This document shows positions 52,583 to 64,000 of a stretch of DNA of 64,000 bases, in pieces (the first letter of the stretch is position 1; each line of letters starts with the position of its first letter). The position numbers and the translations under genes were made by a program. Where the stretch lies: positions 69,459 through 133,458 of the IMG/VR virus record IMGVR_UViG_3300019487_000018. The stretch is one strand, 5' to 3'. The DNA comes from a virus. Below the pieces are notes generated by a model. It was given only the letters and a program-made list of their open reading frames with translations, searched no databases and had not been told where the DNA came from.

Positions 52583-53791
52583 ATGCTGTTCATTGCCATG
52601 TTGATTGCTACAACAATAGCAATCGCAGGATCTGCTGCTTACTTTAGCGTGTATGGTCTTGCGTATACGTTCAGTGGGATGTTCTGGTATGTTGTTGTTA
52701 TGGGAGCATCTCTTGAAGCTGGTAAACTGATGTCCGCTTCGTATCTTTACCGATACTGGTCAAAGATGGGTGGGTGGACGTGGCTTCGATACTACATGAT
52801 TGCTGGTATTCTGGCGTTGATGTTTCTGACGTCTGCTGGCATTTTCGGCTTCTTGTCATCTGGTTATCAGGCAGATGTCCTTCCGTTGAAACAGAAAGAA
52901 GCACAAGTCAAGCTTCTTGAGGACGAAAAGGTCCGTAAGCTTGCTCGGAAACAACAAATAGACGACCTGATCGCCCGATCTCCAATAGTGCAAAATCTTG
53001 AGCGTAACGGCGAGATCGACCGTCGCGCAATGCTTGTGTTGCGCGAAAGCACACGCGCACGAGACAGTTTGACCCGACAGTATAAGGCAGAACAGACCGA
53101 AGTCACGAAGCGACTGAATGAACTCGACAAAGAGATCCTTGCGCTTCAACAAGAAATCATCAAGACAGAAGCACATATTGGTCCGATTACCTACATTGCG
53201 AAGGCGTTTGGTTATGAAACGGATCAAGCAACAAAGTACCTGATCTTCATAATCATCTTTGCGTTCGACCCAATGGCAATCGCTTTGACGCTCCGCGTGA
53301 ACATCGCTTTGCGAGTCCGTAATAACGAACGGCGACCAATGCCAGAGATCAAACCTCGCGAATCGATGCTGCCTGAACCAAAACACACACCACCAATGCC
53401 AGAGATCAAACAGCATCCAAAGCAGGAGATTGACCCTCGTGAATTCATTGGAGAACTGTTGCCCGAACCAAAACACACACCACCAATGCCAGAGATCGAA
53501 CAGCCTCACGCTGTTCGAGCAGAAATTCTTCCGGTAAAGATTCCAATTTCAGAGCCTGTTGTTGAGAAAAAACCTGAACAGCCTGTTGAAAAACGCATTC
53601 GTCCACGATACATTGACGAACTGGCCGCAAGTAGTGGTGCGATCAACCCCGATGCGCTATACGAATTGATCAGCTACTATCGTGAACTAAAGGCGAAGCC
53701 TCATCCTTTAACGGGTCAAGACCTTGTTGACAAGCACGCAATCGAGAACATTCTTCGTAGTCATGGATTGATGTTATACTTCAACGAGTAG
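52583..53791 (+). CDS. Membrane protein with coiled coil and Pro-rich repeat
   Basis: Three N-terminal TM segments (SAAYFSVYG, LEAGKL, TSAGIFGFLS), coiled coil, FIIIFAFDPMAI. Confidence 0.8.
   Translation: MLFIAMLIATTIAIAGSAAYFSVYGLAYTFSGMFWYVVVMGASLEAGKLMSASYLYRYWSKMGGWTWLRYYMIAGILALMFLTSAGIFGFLSSGYQADVLPLKQKEAQVKLLEDEKVRKLARKQQIDDLIARSPIVQNLERNGEIDRRAMLVLRESTRARDSLTRQYKAEQTEVTKRLNELDKEILALQQEIIKTEAHIGPITYIAKAFGYETDQATKYLIFIIIFAFDPMAIALTLRVNIALRVRNNERRPMPEIKPRESMLPEPKHTPPMPEIKQHPKQEIDPREFIGELLPEPKHTPPMPEIEQPHAVRAEILPVKIPISEPVVEKKPEQPVEKRIRPRYIDELAASSGAINPDALYELISYYRELKAKPHPLTGQDLVDKHAIENILRSHGLMLYFNE
53371..53504 (+). repeat. 44-nt direct repeat (2 mismatches) at 53371 and 53461, partial third copy at about 53335
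   Basis: GCC(T/C)GAACCAAAACACACACCACCAATGCCAGAGATC(A/G)AACAGC, encoding PEPKHTPPMPEI. Confidence 0.85.
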
Positions 53792-57269: not shown

Positions 57270-58508
57270 ATGACAACGTACGTAATCGATTTTTCGGACC
57301 CTCTTAAAGATGGGTTTTCGATCGCACCAGGTGGATTCAACGGACCTGGCGGTTCTGCCTCAAATACATCTCTCCGTCTTTACGGTCGAGGCGCACTAGA
57401 ATGGGGCGAATCTGTTAATGAAGACCTCGTCCGTCTTACAGAAAACTTCAACAGCGCTACACCACCTATTACACCAGTTGACGGTATGTTGTGGTTGCGA
57501 ACAAAGTACTATTGGCTCCGCACGGCAGTTGATTGGTATGTTCGTGATCCTGATTCACCTGCTGCTTGGGTATTCCTGTCAACAATTGCAACCGGTGGTG
57601 TTGTCAACGGTGGTGCTGTAGGTACAAACGTAGCTCCAGCTCACGCGATCGGTGTGTATTGGTACACAGGTGGTGCTCCAACTGATCCTCTGACATCGAA
57701 CCTTGACGCGTTTGGTGACCCACTCACACCCACAACATTGTATCGTTGGGACTCAGCATACAAGCAAATTCCAGCCGGTTGGATGCCACAAGCATTTACA
57801 CAAAATGCAGCTGCTCCAACTGCTGCAAACTTCCCGGAGAAGAGCTTGTTGGTTTGGGACGCGTTCCAGGGTGTTAGTGGAACGTTCGTTGCTCCACCAA
57901 TTTCGATTGTTGCACCAACTCAACCAGCACAGGCAACGGAAGGTACATTGTGGTGGGATAGTGTCAACAACATTCTGTATGTGTGGAACGATTTCACGAC
58001 AACATGGCAGCCATTGGTTACAGGAGGCGGTGGCGGATCTGGTGATACGACTTATCTACGTCTTGATGGCACAAACACACCAACAGCTAACCTAAACATT
58101 GGTGGCTTCCGTCTGACAAACATTACAACAAACGTAGGTGTAGCAACTGACGCTTTGAGTGTCGGTGCCGCCGATACTCGTTACGTAAACATAACCGGTG
58201 ATACAATGACTGGCGTGCTGGCGATGGGTGCATTCAACATCACCGGCCTACCTGTCATGTCTTACCCTGACTTGGTCAACACCGAGTTTGCAGCAACAAA
58301 GAACTACGTTAATACTGCAGTCACGTCGATTACAAGCGGTGGCGGTTCGGTTACTGTTCCGTCGGTGTTTGTATCGCCAGCAGTTCCGACCTATAAGGCT
58401 GGTGACATCTATGTCTTGGGCGCTGTGATCTACATTGCTATCGGCGTAGGTGTAGGTGCTCCTCCGGGTGGTAACTGGCGACAAGTGTTCCCAGCACAGT
58501 ACTCATAA
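57270..58508 (+). CDS. Virion (baseplate/fibre-type) protein
   Basis: TAAATA at 57231; SLRLYGRG..WGESVNEDLVRLTENF..P..GMLW, GTLWWD, YVNITGDTMTG motifs shared with the fibre genes. Confidence 0.75.
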   Translation: MTTYVIDFSDPLKDGFSIAPGGFNGPGGSASNTSLRLYGRGALEWGESVNEDLVRLTENFNSATPPITPVDGMLWLRTKYYWLRTAVDWYVRDPDSPAAWVFLSTIATGGVVNGGAVGTNVAPAHAIGVYWYTGGAPTDPLTSNLDAFGDPLTPTTLYRWDSAYKQIPAGWMPQAFTQNAAAPTAANFPEKSLLVWDAFQGVSGTFVAPPISIVAPTQPAQATEGTLWWDSVNNILYVWNDFTTTWQPLVTGGGGGSGDTTYLRLDGTNTPTANLNIGGFRLTNITTNVGVATDALSVGAADTRYVNITGDTMTGVLAMGAFNITGLPVMSYPDLVNTEFAATKNYVNTAVTSITSGGGSVTVPSVFVSPAVPTYKAGDIYVLGAVIYIAIGVGVGAPPGGNWRQVFPAQYS

Positions 58509-58559: not shown

Positions 58560-59735
58560 ATGACAGGAGCTGCAGTCTCATTCTACAAGCGATCTGACGC
58601 GGGTACATTGCGTAAGCATACACCGTCAGCATTCAAAACAGCTCCCCTTGCAATTGCTCCTCAGCTAATGCTGACAGAGCTAATGGTGTATTTGAAGACG
58701 ACTGAAACCTGTCAACTCAACTGCGCACACTGCTTCACCAACGGAATCAACGGACGAAAAATCTACTTCGATCCAGCTCGAACAATCGATTGGTTCCATC
58801 GTCTCCATGCAGTAAATCCAACCCTGGCGGGAGGAAGTGTCGCTTTTCATGGTGGGGAGCCAATGCTTGCTCCAATCGCCGATATGCGTCGTACATGGGA
58901 AGCGTGCAAGGATTTGTGGCCAACAGTTTGGTGGACAACAACGACAAACCTTGTATACAAACTCGACGATGAAAAGCGCCTATTCTTCAAGGAATGCTTT
59001 ACAGACGGCATCTCAACTTCTTGGGACAAGAATATCCGATTTGATAACGAAAAACAGGAAGCTCTGTGGGCTAAAAACGTCCAAACACTTCTCGATGATG
59101 GGCATAAGATCACGCTTATGGTAAGCTTAAATCGTGCGATCACTGATATGAACCCGGAAGATTTCCTGCGTTGGGTTGGTGATATCGGCGTTCACTATTT
59201 GCATCTTGAACGAATCACCCCAAATGGTAACGCAACTCGCAACCCACACATCCTTCCTTCAAATAAAGAACTCGATGCTTGGATGCTGCGATTATGGGAT
59301 GCAAGTTTGAAGCTTGGCACACATAAGTACTTTGCTAATCTGTTTTTGAACGGAATTTTGTCGAGCTTTGTGTCATTAACACATTCGGGTTGTCGTTGTC
59401 GAAGTTGCGAGAAGAAGATTTTCACCCTGAACGCAGATGGAACAATTGGCGGATGTCCAAACAGTGCAGTAGACAACACGTTCGGAACAATGGAAGATGA
59501 TATTTTCTCGTTGCTTAGCAGCGAGGGGCGAATCGAAAACATTGCTTGTGAAACACAACGCAATCCGCTGTGCTACACGTGCGATGTTTATGACGTTTGC
59601 AACGGTGATTGTCACCAACTTGCATGGGAAGGCGACGTTTGTGCAAGTCCGAAATCGTTGATGCGTCGATTCAAAGCAGAGAACAATAGAGAACAGTATG
59701 AGATGTTCCTTAACGGGTTCATCGGCAAGGAGTAA
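58560..59735 (+). CDS. Radical SAM protein with SPASM domain
   Basis: CQLNCAHC (CxxxCxxC), FHGGEP, TTTNL; SPASM-type CRCRSC..GGCPN..CYTCDVYDVCNGDCHQLAWEGDVC. Confidence 0.93.
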   Translation: MTGAAVSFYKRSDAGTLRKHTPSAFKTAPLAIAPQLMLTELMVYLKTTETCQLNCAHCFTNGINGRKIYFDPARTIDWFHRLHAVNPTLAGGSVAFHGGEPMLAPIADMRRTWEACKDLWPTVWWTTTTNLVYKLDDEKRLFFKECFTDGISTSWDKNIRFDNEKQEALWAKNVQTLLDDGHKITLMVSLNRAITDMNPEDFLRWVGDIGVHYLHLERITPNGNATRNPHILPSNKELDAWMLRLWDASLKLGTHKYFANLFLNGILSSFVSLTHSGCRCRSCEKKIFTLNADGTIGGCPNSAVDNTFGTMEDDIFSLLSSEGRIENIACETQRNPLCYTCDVYDVCNGDCHQLAWEGDVCASPKSLMRRFKAENNREQYEMFLNGFIGKE

Positions 59736-59737
59736 CT

Positions 59738-60391
59738 ATGGCTATCGCTGGCACAGACATCACGAAAGACAATATCACTGGATCAGGTGGCGTTGACTTG
59801 AACTCGTTCAAGCAACAAATCACCGACGTTGTCAACGCACTCACAAAAACAACAAGCGTGTCCGCAAACGGGACTGCACTAGGTCAAAAGCCATTTGGTA
59901 GTGGTGCACCAATTAGTGGATCGTTGTCAAGCACCAACTATGGTGGAACACCTCCTCTGTCTGCGCCACTTGTCGCTCCTGGCACGGTGACGAATTCACC
60001 ACAAGCAAGTGACATTGCAGGTGCGAACATTGCAGCAGCCACTCTGATCACATTGTTCCAAAACACAGCTGTATTACTGTCCCGTGTTCGTCGCTATTCA
60101 ATGGTAAAAACATACCTTAGTCCAGCGCCTGTTATCCAACTATCACTTACAGAACCAGGCCGCTATGGTTATCTGACAACAACGTACCAAGCAAATCCAG
60201 CAACAACAACACCAGCAATCACGACATCTTTGGCAGCTCTTACTGGCGATATTAGTGCAGCAACGTTAAACACAGTAATTGACAACGTTGACACCGCAAT
60301 TACGAACCACAGAAACACAACCGTCGCGTTCACGGAAACGTGGTGTCACTCAAGCTGTCACAGCAGTCATAGTTCAAGGAACCGTCGCTAA
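59738..60391 (+). CDS. Putative radical SAM substrate/precursor with C-terminal WCHSSCHSSHSSRNRR
   Basis: 217 aa, Thr/Ala/Ser-rich body; both Cys and three His-Ser-Ser units lie in the last 15 residues; GGAG RBS right after the rSAM stop. Confidence 0.7.
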   Translation: MAIAGTDITKDNITGSGGVDLNSFKQQITDVVNALTKTTSVSANGTALGQKPFGSGAPISGSLSSTNYGGTPPLSAPLVAPGTVTNSPQASDIAGANIAAATLITLFQNTAVLLSRVRRYSMVKTYLSPAPVIQLSLTEPGRYGYLTTTYQANPATTTPAITTSLAALTGDISAATLNTVIDNVDTAITNHRNTTVAFTETWCHSSCHSSHSSRNRR

Positions 60392-61155
60392 TGACCACAG
60401 TTACAACAGAACTTCCGCTTTCAATGGACGCCTTGCGTCAGGTAATTACACAACCAGATGCAGGAGTGGTTGTTGACTACAACAACAGTAACCTCAAAGG
60501 CCGTGCAGCGCTCATTTACATGACGAATACAAACTTACCAAATGTTGCTCTGAACATGACAGATGTGTCTCTCGAAGAGAAGTTTGTACTCGTTGACGAC
60601 TACATCACTCACAAGTCAATCCTGCATGTAGCACAACTAGTCAACACCGTTTTGAATGTGTTATTCGCCGTTCGGAAAGTTGACATTGGTGCTGAACAAG
60701 ACATATTGGATCAAGTGTCGCTATTTCCACAAGAACATGTCGGCGAATATCTTGCAAATCCAACACGAGCTGAACACATCAACAAGCTGATTGAACTTCT
60801 CGACAGTCTACCTCTGTACGCTGTAACGTGTTCAACATCATTCCGCGAAGTATACGGTAAAGGAAAAGAAGCGTTTGAGCCGGTTAACGACATTGATCAT
60901 ACTGGTTTCACATTCGTCCACCTGTTGACTCATCCGTTGTTCCTCGAATATTTCACACAACCAGCTACGACGACACTGAAGTATTACGTTCAGCAGTTCG
61001 ACGAGTACATGTATAACGGAAAATCGTTGTTTCCATTTTTGGTAAACTCGCCTGTATTCGGTATTCTTGAGTGTTACATCACAGGGGCGGTGGACCTTGA
61101 TCAGCTGCTTACAGCACACTCAGAAATGAATGCTTTGGAAGGAGCTGCAGCCTAA
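60391..61155 (+). CDS. Hypothetical protein in the radical SAM operon
   Basis: 254 aa, TAATG-coupled. Confidence 0.75.
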   Translation: MTTVTTELPLSMDALRQVITQPDAGVVVDYNNSNLKGRAALIYMTNTNLPNVALNMTDVSLEEKFVLVDDYITHKSILHVAQLVNTVLNVLFAVRKVDIGAEQDILDQVSLFPQEHVGEYLANPTRAEHINKLIELLDSLPLYAVTCSTSFREVYGKGKEAFEPVNDIDHTGFTFVHLLTHPLFLEYFTQPATTTLKYYVQQFDEYMYNGKSLFPFLVNSPVFGILECYITGAVDLDQLLTAHSEMNALEGAAA

Positions 61156-62267: not shown

Positions 62268-63338
62268 ATGTTACACCTACTAAACAAAGTCTACATTAAA
62301 CCAGACGCTGATTTCCAGCGAGGTCACGATGCAATTATCATCTCTCCGAAAACGAAGCTGTTTGACAGCGAACTTTTTGGTGTGGATGACATCGACTTTG
62401 GTAAGATCCACTTCACCGCAGAAACATTCGATGCTCTTGTCGAGGTATTTGGAAGTGAAGACGCTTTTGTACAGTGGTTGGTTTATTTCGATCCGTCGAC
62501 TCGTCTGGTTGTACATTGTGATCCAGCTACATTCGAGCACATTCTGGTTCGATGGCTTAAGACGATCCTTCCAAACATGGACGGTTCGAGTTTTCACAGT
62601 CTGATTCGCATAATTTACGCTCGATACGGTTACCAGTTTGGTTATCCGTACGTTCCATTTGTTCGCCTAACACCAGACGCTGCTGCTGTGTACAAGAGCT
62701 TCTTAGCTCGTATTCCTTCAAAGGAACAAGCGGTGCAGATGTGGAATCAGGCACAGCCATACACTGTGAATGTCGATTCTGCTGCTGTAAGTTTGGAATA
62801 CCAACTCGCCACATACTTGGATGATCCGACTTGGGAACATACCGACCAGCTGAAAGCAAAAGTCATCACCATGGTCAAGAAGTTTCAAGTTGGTTCACTA
62901 CTCGATGTAAAAGAAGTCATGCTTGGGCACTTGTATATGTTACCAGACTTTGATCAGTTGAAAGATACACTGGTACACTATGTTACAGAACACCTCGAAT
63001 ACACATTTTTGCTGGACATGAAACTGACCTCAGACGACTACACACGATTGTACGATCAATACAATACAGCTGTACTGCGTCAGATCTACATTGATTACTT
63101 CAAAATGCATGCGGATATTTTTGACGAGACACAAGTTGAGAAAGATCACTTCCTCGATCCTGCAATCACATTTGAACAAATCATCGACAATGAGCTAGCT
63201 TCAATCGCTACGCGACAACTGCTTGGCTCGTGGGAATATGGCCTGACAGTCAACACTTACCTGCTAGACCACCTCTTTGCGCTCGAGAGAGCGAATGACC
63301 AGGCTGAGTTGAAGAAGTTCTCGCTCCTAAGGAGTTAG
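62268..63338 (+). CDS. Hypothetical protein, paralogue B (MLHLLNKVYIK)
   Basis: 356 aa; DAIIISP, EYQLATYLDDPTW, VNTYLLDH. Confidence 0.8.
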   Translation: MLHLLNKVYIKPDADFQRGHDAIIISPKTKLFDSELFGVDDIDFGKIHFTAETFDALVEVFGSEDAFVQWLVYFDPSTRLVVHCDPATFEHILVRWLKTILPNMDGSSFHSLIRIIYARYGYQFGYPYVPFVRLTPDAAAVYKSFLARIPSKEQAVQMWNQAQPYTVNVDSAAVSLEYQLATYLDDPTWEHTDQLKAKVITMVKKFQVGSLLDVKEVMLGHLYMLPDFDQLKDTLVHYVTEHLEYTFLLDMKLTSDDYTRLYDQYNTAVLRQIYIDYFKMHADIFDETQVEKDHFLDPAITFEQIIDNELASIATRQLLGSWEYGLTVNTYLLDHLFALERANDQAELKKFSLLRS

Positions 63339-63340
63339 CG

Positions 63341-64000
63341 ATGAGCATGGATTTCGTAATCGACTTCAACCTTGAGCTGTTACATGGTTGCAAGTGGAAC
63401 TGCACTGGCTGCAATATTGGTAAGGAAGAACAAGACGGCTTTCTTGACGGCGATTTCGATCGTTTGATGCATTTGTTTGAGGATCTCGAGCGAAACTTTC
63501 ACATCCTATCAAACGTTGCAATCACACCAACCGACTTCATTGTTTCGAACAACGCAGAGCAAATTTTCGTTCCAGAACTCAAGCTCATGCTTGACAAGTT
63601 CAAGGCGGTAACATTGAACACAACATTCCTGCACGATGATGACGTGCTGGAATACTGGGCAGCCAAACTACGACCGCTCCTCAAGGGCAATACTCTGAAG
63701 TTTAGTGTTCCTGTCGAACCAGATCACTATATGAACAAGAAGTACATGGCAAAGATCCTTCACAATCGTGACTACATGGTCAGTTTGCTTCCAGAAACGA
63801 AATACACAAAGACGTACTTGATCGGCAATTTGTACGAGTACAAGAAGTTCGTCGACTTCGAATTCTACAGCGAAGACTTTCACGATAAGTGGGATGGACA
63901 CCTCGATTTGGTGATTACAGAGGGGCGTCTTAATTTGACGAATCCGTTCAACCGTCAGCGGTTGCGTCATATGATCGAATATCAGAACGATCTTTACAAT
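63341..64000 (+). CDS. Second radical-SAM-like protein, 3'-truncated by the window (not in ORF track)
   Basis: Manual translation MSMDFVIDFNLELLHGCKWNCTGCNIGKEEQDG...; CxxxCxxC near the N-terminus; 220 open codons; AAGGAG RBS. Confidence 0.8.
   Translation, partial: MSMDFVIDFNLELLHGCKWNCTGCNIGKEEQDGFLDGDFDRLMHLFEDLERNFHILSNVAITPTDFIVSNNAEQIFVPELKLMLDKFKAVTLNTTFLHDDDVLEYWAAKLRPLLKGNTLKFSVPVEPDHYMNKKYMAKILHNRDYMVSLLPETKYTKTYLIGNLYEYKKFVDFEFYSEDFHDKWDGHLDLVITEGRLNLTNPFNRQRLRHMIEYQNDLYN

Follow-up and report, generated by a model that had tools for sequence, protein, structure and literature searches.

The locus studied here raises the question of why a phage protein should end in a repeat of cysteine and histidine and be encoded next to a radical-SAM (rSAM) enzyme. 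The window, i.e., the whole 64,000-nucleotide stretch of viral DNA analyzed, contains a plus-strand open reading frame of 217 amino acids at positions 59738-60391. Its end (60341-60391, plus strand) reads TGG TGT CAC TCA AGC TGT CAC AGC AGT CAT AGT TCA AGG AAC CGT CGC TAA, which is translated as W-C-H-S-S-C-H-S-S-H-S-S-R-N-R-R-stop. The first-pass annotation had described this end as W-CHSS-CHSS-HSS-RNRR, with varied codons in the three H-S-S units and no Cys in the preceding ~200 residues. Reading of the sequence confirmed all three points, and the only Cys residues of the protein (C203 and C207) lie in the tail. The composition was 15.7% T, 11.5% A, 11.1% S, 7.4% G, and 5.5% P.

The tail was found to be the mark of a large family. 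A profile search without any motif requirement collected 855 family clusters at 50% identity, and a canonical tail, (C-H-x-S)x3-R-G-R-R-stop, was present in 136 of the 150 best representatives of these clusters. Neither Pfam nor NCBIfam has a model for the family, and no description was found in the literature searched. When the canonical motif and its stop were back-translated, at least 120 viral contigs were matched, together with 27 stretches in 596 Gb of prokaryote genomes. With a per-site probability of ~7e-15, ~0.01 hits would be expected in the latter collection; the motif is not due to chance. Across 159 distinct genes, every synonymous codon was used for the invariant tail residues, including both Ser codon families. 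Since the codons are fully mixed, selection acts on the protein, which bears out the earlier claim that the repeat is conserved at the protein level. The C, H, S, and R positions of the tail were invariant across 54 aligned members. Tandem copies and longer versions (500-660 aa) of the protein also exist.

The window protein belongs to this family by homology of its N-terminal domain (blastp of residues 1-217 against L128, 2.7e-10; phmmer down to 2.4e-10; family cluster HMM, 58.9 bits, 7e-17). Its tail, CHSS-CHSS-(-)HSS-RNRR, kept 10 of the 11 family-invariant positions (C203, H204, S206, C207, H208, S210, H211, R214, R216, and R217), whereas the third Cys is absent and the G of R-G-R-R is replaced by N. 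Hence, the motif had been read correctly, but the segment at 60341..60391 (+) is a derived variant of (CHxS)x3-RGRR, one residue short of the family form. Carriers of the family are some predatory bacteria and hundreds of phages of the T4-like and jumbo kinds, which are uncultured apart from a few. Among cultivable phages, the carriers were Atu_ph07, Phosso, RSL2/RSF1, FLC phages, SURPRISE13, and pPa_SNUABM_DT01, all of which were found via the rSAM search only; megablast of the region and tblastn of three tail proteins gave no match to isolated phages.

Next to the tail gene lies the gene of an rSAM/SPASM enzyme (58560..59735, +; phrog_1802 at 2e-57), the predicted modifier of the tail, here called rSAM no. 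1. Its stop codon is 2 nt before the tail-gene start, and the tail stop overlaps the start of a conserved 254-aa partner protein, P240 (60391..61155, +; TAATG), indicating translational coupling on both sides. This order, with the rSAM directly upstream and P240 directly downstream, is that of the family. In loci holding enough upstream DNA to be informative (n = 79), an orthologous rSAM/SPASM gene adjoined the tail gene upstream in 61 and was within 2.5 kb in 69. The link between the tail and a SPASM rSAM, which the first-pass annotation had proposed, was thus borne out, and the motif was not found to be widespread without rSAM neighbors. Where small tail copies stand in tandem, four to five divergent rSAM-like paralogues follow directly downstream instead. 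The rSAM-tail linkage is also kept in bacterial islands.

P240 (phrog_20767 at 1e-35; cluster HMM at 60391-61155, 1.3e-38) was found in 114 of 148 loci, usually immediately after the tail gene. It was modeled by AF2 with high scores (pLDDT 94.5, pTM 0.90), and no known fold was recognized for it in the PDB: AFDB clusters gave one uncharacterized orthologue only, and the best hit of a wide structural search had a Z of 4.7 over residues 1-60. Downstream are two paralogues, P369 (61155..62258, +; 367 aa, phrog_36207, function unassigned) and a 356-aa protein of the same cluster (62268..63338, +; cluster HMM 9e-40). The P369 cluster is present in 74 loci and was not rSAM-like by hhalign. They are followed by a divergent rSAM-like protein with a CX3CX2C motif (GCKWNCTGC; phrog_31457), whose gene runs on the plus strand from 63341 to the window end at 64000 and on to 64378. 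Its cluster, rl370, occurs in 50 loci, and hhalign showed a weak relationship to the rSAM core over 143 columns (E 5e-4). Past the window end, three more rSAMs, two 2OG-Fe(II) oxygenases, and two HNH-type endonuclease inserts are encoded. No protease or exporter family was matched among the conserved cassette genes tested.

rSAM no. 1 is a minimal enzyme. The CX3CX2C motif is formed by C51/C55/C58, and the SPASM half has eight invariant Cys (C280, C283, C299, C338, C341, C347, C351, and C361). The pattern C338-x2-C341-x5-C347-x3-C351 places it in the radical SAM/SPASM superfamily; the SPASM model TIGR04085 gave 23.7 bits, slightly below the cut-off of 27. Orthologues were 41-64% identical to it. 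It has neither an N-terminal extension nor an RRE domain, and an enzyme without such a leader-binding domain would bind the tail itself. The best NCBIfam match was anSME (42 bits against a cut-off of 349.45; 5.9e-11), which was also the sole solved structure aligning over the full length, and a phmmer search of the PDB with the single rSAM sequence gave no match. With the cyclophane, sacti/ranthipeptide, anSME, and HXS models, the scores were far below every cut-off. On the grounds of its sequence, rSAM no. 1 is outside the anSME, triceptide, ranthipeptide, and HXS families.

Nevertheless, several known systems resemble this one in part. Like rSAM no. 1, anSME (TIGR03942; PDB 4K36-4K39) is a minimal rSAM + SPASM enzyme with eight Cys in the SPASM half and no leader-binding domain, and it acts on a short motif of a whole protein. 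The canonical last unit, C-H-x-S-R, even spaces Cys and Arg as in C-x-P-x-R. However, the substrate in the window is not a sulfatase, and its tail has no Pro or Ala at position 3 of the anSME motif C/S-x-P/A-x-R. Furthermore, rSAM no. 1 has C299-P300 at the C-D position of anSME, and this Pro was invariant in 35 orthologues. The Asp of C-D is the proposed catalytic base of anSME.

The second system is the HXS antiphage system (HxsA/B/C/D, TIGR03976-03979), in which HxsA is matured by the rSAMs HxsB/HxsC with HxsD and a +8 Da change was mapped on an S-H-R-S-S motif (Li et al., Nat Commun 2026, PMC13128918). HxsA is likewise a folded protein with His-x-Ser repeats flanked by basic residues that needs dedicated rSAMs, and an S-H-S-S is present in the window tail. 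In contrast to the tail, the repeats of HxsA lie inside the protein instead of at its C-terminus and have no Cys between them, and HxsA acts as a defense effector in the bacterial periplasm, not as a phage particle protein. When E values as high as 1 were accepted, the tail protein still matched no NCBIfam family, HxsA among them. Hxs models were absent from the 25 best of 35 NCBIfam matches of rSAM no. 1, the HxsC model reached only 32.4 and 18.7 bits with the downstream rSAMs (cut-off 267.9), and the HxsD model found no match among the 16 cassette proteins scanned.

Triceptide systems share with the window the arrangement of repeated aromatic-x-x units beside a SPASM rSAM. Three such units (H-S-S) are present in the tail, and substrates with His-containing motifs are known (PMC11499958). 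The scores of rSAM no. 1 with the models of these enzymes were 17.1 bits for XyeB (TIGR04496; cut-off 450), 23.3 for YhhB (NF041707; 445), 14.2 for FxsB (TIGR04269; 370), and 14.6 for AmcB (NF041718; 425). Unlike the substrates of these enzymes and of the HaaB/HtkB-type His crosslinks, the window protein has no short leader peptide, its Cys residues are interleaved with the units, and it is a folded protein of ~22 kDa. The thioether maturases (the ranthipeptide enzyme PapB with repeated C-x3-D, the sactisynthase CteB, and QhpD) are comparable in that the repeated Cys units could each form a small thioether ring, and with QhpD there is already an rSAM known to crosslink a protein subunit, the gamma subunit of QHNDH. 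However, CteB aligned with rSAM no. 1 over the rSAM core only, and the natural variants seen lose a Cys, never a His. PapB (NF047865) and RumMC (NF035951) gave 24.9 and 15.6 bits (cut-offs 340 and 720), respectively, whereas the QhpD model matched only a downstream rSAM (25 against 453 bits).

Subsequently, we consider the part of the protein before the tail. Residues 1-201 (59738..60340, +) form a conserved domain with full-length homology to family members. The AF2 model of the protein (mean pLDDT 70, pTM 0.67) has an alpha/beta core, with loop 40-99 disordered. No solved fold was convincing for this model (Foldseek against the PDB, best E 0.9), and a wide structural search gave at best a Z of 5.1, to a designed helical protein. 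Structural matches in BFVD were uncharacterized relatives only, with Atu_ph07 among them, and the ESM Atlas gave sub-threshold leads only. Searches of PHROGs, Pfam, and NCBIfam left the tail protein, P240, and P369 without an informative name. The first-pass annotation had called this part a leader and had supposed at the same time that a whole protein is modified. The latter fits better than leader plus core, as the ~200 preceding residues are conserved and predicted to be folded, whereas the term leader is probably wrong for a protein whose enzyme has no RRE-like N-terminal extension. A complex was predicted from the rSAM alignment with tail residues 168-217, SAM, and three 4Fe-4S clusters; its score of 0.02 weighs on neither side. 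A scan for sigma-70 promoters and terminators was no better than shuffles, and TATAAATA was not enriched.

The surrounding genes point to the tail fiber. A 412-aa fiber-like structural protein (57270..58508, +) precedes rSAM no. 1 and matches phrog_14394 (virion structural) and phrog_16472 (tail fiber); it is syntenic with a 421-aa protein of the relative L003. Its N-terminus and a middle segment recur in a tail-fiber-like protein of 763 aa (L156:8388-10679) encoded at the opposite end of the cassette, and fiber-like genes are present on both sides of the window cassette. In most relatives, the cassette is flanked by a tail-fiber-like protein, a DUF4815 protein, and a virion structural protein; the Peptidase_G2 chaperone-domain match in the tail-fiber-like protein of the relatives was weak (24.5 bits against a 25-bit cut-off). 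In a Halobacteriovoraceae MAG, the cassette lies in a chromosomal island beside an S74-chaperone fiber protein.

The virion-like character that had been proposed from composition is supported by one homologue. Gp170 of Agrobacterium phage Atu_ph07 ends in FCHSSCHASCHNSRSRR and has a calculated mass of 31.894 kDa, which matches the mass listed in the Atu_ph07 virion proteome (PMC6102473 Table S5), where 8 unique peptides cover 35% of the protein. It was present in gel slices 1-9 and was most abundant in slice 1, the top one, despite its ~32 kDa, whereas the neighboring rSAM, cupin, and P240 (gp171, gp172, and gp169) were absent from the virion list (PMC6102473 Table S5). The virion residence rests on this one distant homologue (27% identity in the alignment), and the PEG-purified preparation also contained some non-structural proteins, e.g., RecA-like and RNR, with single peptides (PMC6102473). 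Table S5 gives no peptide identities for gp170 and is therefore silent on the tail. In the FLC6, SURPRISE13, and AP-J-162 papers, no virion proteomics of homologues was found.

As the tail recurs in hundreds of phages beside rSAM and fiber genes, the family is probably one of virus-particle proteins whose tail is finished by an undescribed chemistry. For the window, we favor, with moderate confidence, a folded virion protein of the fiber module whose tail is modified by the adjacent rSAM without a leader. The product of 59738-60391 would be a structural protein of the fiber/baseplate module rather than a leader-plus-core peptide, and its last 15 residues would serve as the recognition and reaction site of the enzyme encoded at 58560-59735, with the invariant R-x-R-R end as a handle. 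A 5'-deoxyadenosyl radical would abstract a hydrogen atom from the tail side chains, and the product may be an intramolecular crosslink (a cyclophane from His carbon to Ser C-beta, or a thioether from Cys sulfur to carbon) or an oxidized Cys or Ser. The 254-aa partner and the downstream rSAM and 2OG-oxygenase genes may assist or tailor the reaction, after which the matured protein would be assembled into the virion. A tentative extension, which we consider doubtful, is that the modification is a covalent staple locking a heat- and SDS-stable oligomer or the attachment to a fiber or baseplate partner. If this is true, a structural protein of a virus would for the first time be known to be crosslinked by a radical-SAM enzyme, and the device would be common to phage tail-fiber modules and the adhesive-fiber loci of predatory Bdellovibrionota.

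The same residues could instead form an unmodified metal site, with Cys and His at i, i+4, and i+8 on one face of a helix; a trimeric fiber-type protein could chelate Zn, Fe, or Cu in this manner, while the rSAMs act elsewhere. In the tip of the T4 long tail fiber (gp37), rows of His-x-His bind iron. The three Cys-His pairs within 12 residues and the fiber genes nearby agree with a chelate, as does the migration of the Atu_ph07 homologue far above the monomer mass, which SDS-stable fiber trimers can show. However, a metal site does not account well for the rSAM next to the gene, a linkage that persists even in bacterial islands. Moreover, conservation is as strong in the R-x-R-R end and in the fourth residue of each unit (Ser/Asn) as in Cys and His, a pattern suggestive of a site that an enzyme recognizes and not of a chelate; natural variants also drop a Cys while keeping the rest of the tail. 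We thus consider the metal site unlikely and retain the modified tail as the preferred reading.

The window copy itself is a rare derived form by comparison of sequences, in which the third Cys was lost and all three His were kept. An exact tail of the window type had 0 hits in IMG/VR, and the tail is canonical in L003, the nearest relative, whose rSAM is 64% identical. The cassette is also atypical, since the cupin, P453, DUF4815, p77, and B12-rSAM genes are found nowhere in the 193-kb genome of the window phage; the cupin is present in 66 loci, the upstream fiber-like protein P453 in 64, and the other three in 17-27. With the third Cys missing and RNRR in place of RGRR, part of the reaction could run differently in the window copy or be lost there. 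All of this would suit a decaying copy whose tail is no longer processed in the canonical manner. Against decay, the reading frame is unbroken, its neighbors in the multi-rSAM cassette are tightly coupled to it, and that cassette is itself intact. In addition, a tail with two Cys and three His is found in an independent lineage, P0144 (33% identity), which has an rSAM cassette of its own around it. Two other lineages lack the second Cys instead, and among the best 150 of the 855 clusters Cys was lost in variants but His never. These cases suggest tolerated variation, and decay appears quite improbable. Both lineages without the third Cys have no cupin; a rule tying the two losses together was rejected, as canonical tails occur without a cupin in L003, L005, and L027.

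It is still less probable that the tail protein is an accessory of the enzymes, such as an Fe-S or metal donor or a scaffold of the rSAM array comparable to HxsD or PqqD. The tail gene always stands among several rSAM genes, and the Cys and His residues at the end of the protein could hold a cluster, but a homologue is found in virions where the enzymes are not, tandem and 500-660 aa versions exist, and the tail holds only two or three Cys. Least probable is a classical RiPP precursor with an oversized leader of ~200 aa and a core of 15-16 residues that is cut off and released as a bioactive peptide: the core at the extreme C-terminus beside SPASM rSAMs is as in many RiPP clusters, but no protease or exporter accompanies it among the genes tested, the enzyme has no RRE domain, the N-terminal domain is conserved end to end and predicted to fold, and gp170, the homologue in Atu_ph07, was found in virions with 35% coverage.

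The known targets of radical-SAM maturation are peptide antibiotics, a few enzymes (sulfatases and QHNDH), and, since 2026, one antiphage effector of bacteria. With its two Cys and three His, the window tail is an experiment of nature on the residues that the chemistry requires, and the cultivable carriers, including Atu_ph07, Phosso, and RSL2/RSF1, make the proposed modification directly testable. An invariant 16-residue tail with a leader-independent enzyme could yield a compact tool for protein tagging or stapling. The same cassette beside an S74-type fiber gene in predatory bacteria hints at a shared attack-fiber trick. If true, an rSAM dedicated to a virion protein would add a new layer to the maturation of phage particles, and it would do so in the module for host recognition, in hundreds of T4-like and jumbo phages that are uncultured and in the few cultivable carriers.

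The sequence at 60341-60391 was read as TGG TGT CAC TCA AGC TGT CAC AGC AGT CAT AGT TCA AGG AAC CGT CGC TAA, which translates as W-CHSS-CHSS-HSS-RNRR-stop and forms the end of a 217-aa ORF at 59738-60391 on the + strand. The C-terminal motif with varied codons claimed in the first-pass annotation was confirmed, the three H-S-S units being written with different codons. This tail protein has only two Cys residues (203 and 207) and a composition high in Thr, Ala, Ser, and Gly. Upstream, a gap of 2 nt separates the tail-protein ORF from the stop codon of rSAM no. 1, a radical-SAM/SPASM enzyme of 391 aa (58560-59735); downstream, the stop codon of the ORF shares bases with the ATG start codon of the gene that follows (TAATG, 60389-60393), which encodes a 254-aa protein of the partner family P240. 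The gap of 2 nt and the overlap indicate that the three genes are tightly coupled.

The source genome is one virus contig of 193,297 bp (46.5% G+C), whose clamp loader shares ~42-44% identity with its counterparts in jumbo phages of the T4 superfamily, including RsoM2USA, XacN1, and PA5oct, and it encodes a single Cys-His-tailed protein. A gene for a 412-aa fibre-like protein (57270-58508) directly precedes rSAM no. 1, and the 254-aa gene is followed by two paralogues of ~360 aa each (family P369) and a divergent CX3CX2C protein (63341-64378). The last is weakly rSAM-like; P369 and P240 are not rSAM-like. Past the window end, three further rSAMs and two 2OG-Fe(II) oxygenases are encoded. Two HNH/endonuclease-VII-like genes just past that end (L156:2277-2801 and L156:7784-8362; phrog_3322, 7e-27 and 4.5e-32) are inserted among the rSAM genes and are probably homing endonucleases. 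The far end of the cassette encodes a 763-aa tail-fibre-like protein (L156:8388-10679), whose N-terminal ~77 residues and one segment in the middle are shared with the 412-aa protein; thus, fibre-type paralogues bracket the enzyme block. Elsewhere in the window, a 402-aa ORF (52583-53791, +) has a membrane-like N-terminal segment and a proline-rich part with LPEPKHTPPMPEI twice and PMPEIK once more.

Homologues of rSAM no. 1 were found in the cultured jumbo phages Atu_ph07, Phosso, RSL2, RSF1, the FLC phages, SURPRISE13, and pPa_SNUABM_DT01, and the gene after the homologue has a product with the ending FCHSSCHASCHNSRSRR (Atu_ph07) or VCHSSCHTSCHGSRGRR (RSL2). The back-translated motif with its stop codon matched at least 120 stretches in IMG/VR, and the loci fetched from these matches contained 153 ORFs with the tail at the end. 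In prokaryote genomes totalling 596 Gb, the same pattern matched 27 stretches, against ~0.01 estimated by chance. All synonymous codons of the invariant tail residues are used, including both Ser codon families; the invariance in this codon set was imposed by the search pattern, and independent support for it came from a profile search. With a profile built from 54 members and the motif not required, 855 clusters (50% identity) were obtained at E up to 1e-3 and 600 at E up to 1e-10. Among the best 150 of the 855 clusters, 136 had the end C-H-x-S C-H-x-S C-H-x-S R-x-R-R, mostly R-G-R-R; position 4 of the unit is Ser, less often Asn, and position 3 is small and variable. Members fall into length classes of ~126-140 aa (usually tandem pairs), ~170-206 aa, 257 aa, and up to ~310 aa. 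Four C-H-x-S units, or a duplicated three + three block before RGRR, were observed in L145:864-1433, L149:156-764, L122:7832-8515, and L144:3907-4266. Our literature search found no description of the family; the genome papers on FLC6 and SURPRISE13 mention the rSAM, cupin, and oxygenase genes only in listings of accessory proteins.

AF2 with the family alignment gave an alpha/beta domain of moderate confidence for the tail protein (pLDDT 70, pTM 0.67), with a disordered loop at 40-99 and a low-confidence tail. Searches of solved folds with this model returned no match, and a BFVD search returned uncharacterised relatives only, which also include proteins of 500-660 aa. The 254-aa partner was modelled with high confidence (pLDDT 94.5, pTM 0.90), and fold searches detected no structural relatives of it.

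The proposed tie of the tail to an rSAM enzyme was borne out, as the motif was not found to be widespread without rSAM neighbours. All fetched loci were searched with an HMM built on the window-type rSAM, matches of >300 bits being taken as the orthologue. Of the single-copy loci, 79 had 1.3 kb or more of DNA upstream; in 61 of these the orthologue adjoined the tail gene, and in 69 it was on the same strand and no more than 2.5 kb away. In the tandem-pair loci (n=29), the orthologue was seldom within the stored stretch, and four or five divergent rSAM-like paralogues lie downstream; where longer DNA was available (L033, L053, and L115), it was 5-10 kb off. Clustering of neighbour genes across loci gave a typical order of a DUF4815 giant protein, a 77-aa virion structural protein, a tail-fibre-like protein (weak Peptidase_G2 chaperone-domain match, 24.5 bits, just below the 25-bit cut-off), cupin, rSAM, tailed protein, P240, P369, and more rSAMs, including a B12-binding one, with 2OG oxygenases. 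Cupin, DUF4815, 77-aa, and B12-rSAM genes, and that of P453, the usual upstream fibre-like protein, were not found anywhere in the window phage genome, the cassette of which is a reduced version of the typical one. Beside this linkage, a tail serving as an unmodified metal site is an unlikely reading.

In rSAM no. 1, the CX3CX2C triad is accompanied by eight invariant Cys residues in the SPASM half, CX2CX5CX3C among them; an N-terminal extension able to be an RRE was looked for and is absent. No NCBIfam model came near its cut-off on this enzyme: anSME scored 42 bits (cut-off 349), DynA 37.9 (450), DarE 29.9 (650), PapB 24.9 (340), YhhB 23.3 (445), XyeB 17.1 (450), and FxsB 14.2 (370). Among solved structures, only anSME aligned over the full length, and CteB, ChlB, and 8VPO over the rSAM core only. 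The anSME Cys-Asp pair, whose Asp is the proposed catalytic base, aligns with the invariant Cys299-Pro300; therefore, rSAM no. 1 resembles anSME in architecture without being one. It represents a SPASM family of its own.

The window tail differs from the canonical (C-H-x-S)x3-R-G-R-R-stop in being one residue shorter, lacking the third Cys, and ending in RNRR. No exact match to it was found in IMG/VR, and the nearest relative (L003, rSAM 64% identical) has a canonical tail. The window copy specifically might be a decaying member, a reading compatible with the other alternatives. However, P0144, with 33% identity across the 120 C-terminal residues that align and with the ending CHSSCHSSHGNRGRR, comes from an independent 12.8-kb contig (L165) full of rSAM genes; this second lineage with the same tail type makes mere decay improbable. 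The second Cys is missing in P0064 and P0098, with CHSN-H(A/S)NT-CH(T/S)S-(K/R)RSRR, and all three His residues are kept in these two, P0144, and the window tail. These few cases weakly suggest that the H-x-S units may matter more than the full Cys set. Neither lineage without the third Cys (L165 and the window genome) has a cupin, which precedes the rSAM in 66 other loci; the joint loss is a hint only, because canonical tails without a cupin also exist.

The description of the tail protein as virion-like was supported by the Atu_ph07 virion proteome. Its Supplementary Table S5 lists Gp170, a hypothetical protein of 31.89 kDa, with 8 unique peptides and 35.16% coverage, in gel slices 1-9 with the maximum in slice 1, at the top of the gel (PMC6102473). 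The translated Atu_ph07 tail protein (L001:8062-8952) has a mass of 31.894 kDa, and those of gp176 and gp177 also agree with the table, so that the gene numbering is secure. Slice 7 is the peak for the other 31-34-kDa proteins, and slice 1 for those of 87-127 kDa (PMC6102473); accordingly, gp170 mostly runs far above its own mass after boiling in SDS, which would be consistent with a covalently joined or highly stable assembly. The rSAM (gp171), cupin (gp172), and P240 (gp169) are not listed in Table S5 (PMC6102473). That the tail protein is an accessory of the enzymes is quite improbable.

Of the systems described so far, the HXS defence system comes closest. HxsA is a folded protein in which His-x-Ser is repeated five times; it depends on two rSAMs, HxsB and HxsC, as well as on HxsD, and gains +8 Da on an SHRSS motif (PMC13128918). 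The logic of HXS is shared with the window system, but none of its families is present. Triceptide cyclophane synthases, ranthipeptide/sactipeptide synthases, QhpD, and anSME have one aspect each in common with it, and tests for membership placed the system in none of them. The predicted substrate motif of rSAM no. 1 resembles the His-x-Ser and triceptide motifs, and its shape recalls anSME as a minimal enzyme recognising a motif within a whole protein. The first-pass interpretation was partly supported, for the rSAM linkage and the virion protein, and its naming of the N-terminal part as a leader is probably wrong; a released RiPP is a very unlikely reading. Taken together, we consider it probable that the tail protein is a virion, fibre-module protein with a C-terminal tail modified, leader-free, by the adjacent rSAM/SPASM enzyme, whatever the chemistry.

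The prokaryote matches (n=27) come mainly from MAGs of Bdellovibrionota, in which the rSAM orthologue lies close by. On a 1.29-Mb contig of a Halobacteriovoraceae MAG, the cassette lies amid acyl-CoA dehydrogenase, ETF, serine dehydratase, YchF, and PBP1 genes. Besides the tail protein, this chromosomal island (L166:7765-9006 and L166:15090-15647) was observed to encode P240 and P369, several rSAMs, and a fibre protein of the S74-chaperone type. Its position among housekeeping genes indicates that the cassette is not confined to phage genomes. The adjacent 413-aa protein matched many tail-fibre PHROGs and contains the S74 domain ('chaperone of endosialidase'), and Bdellovibrio recognises prey by S74-terminated trimeric fibres (PMC10769870). 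The S74 fibre gene beside the bacterial cassette indicates that the association of the tail cassette with fibres extends to cells.
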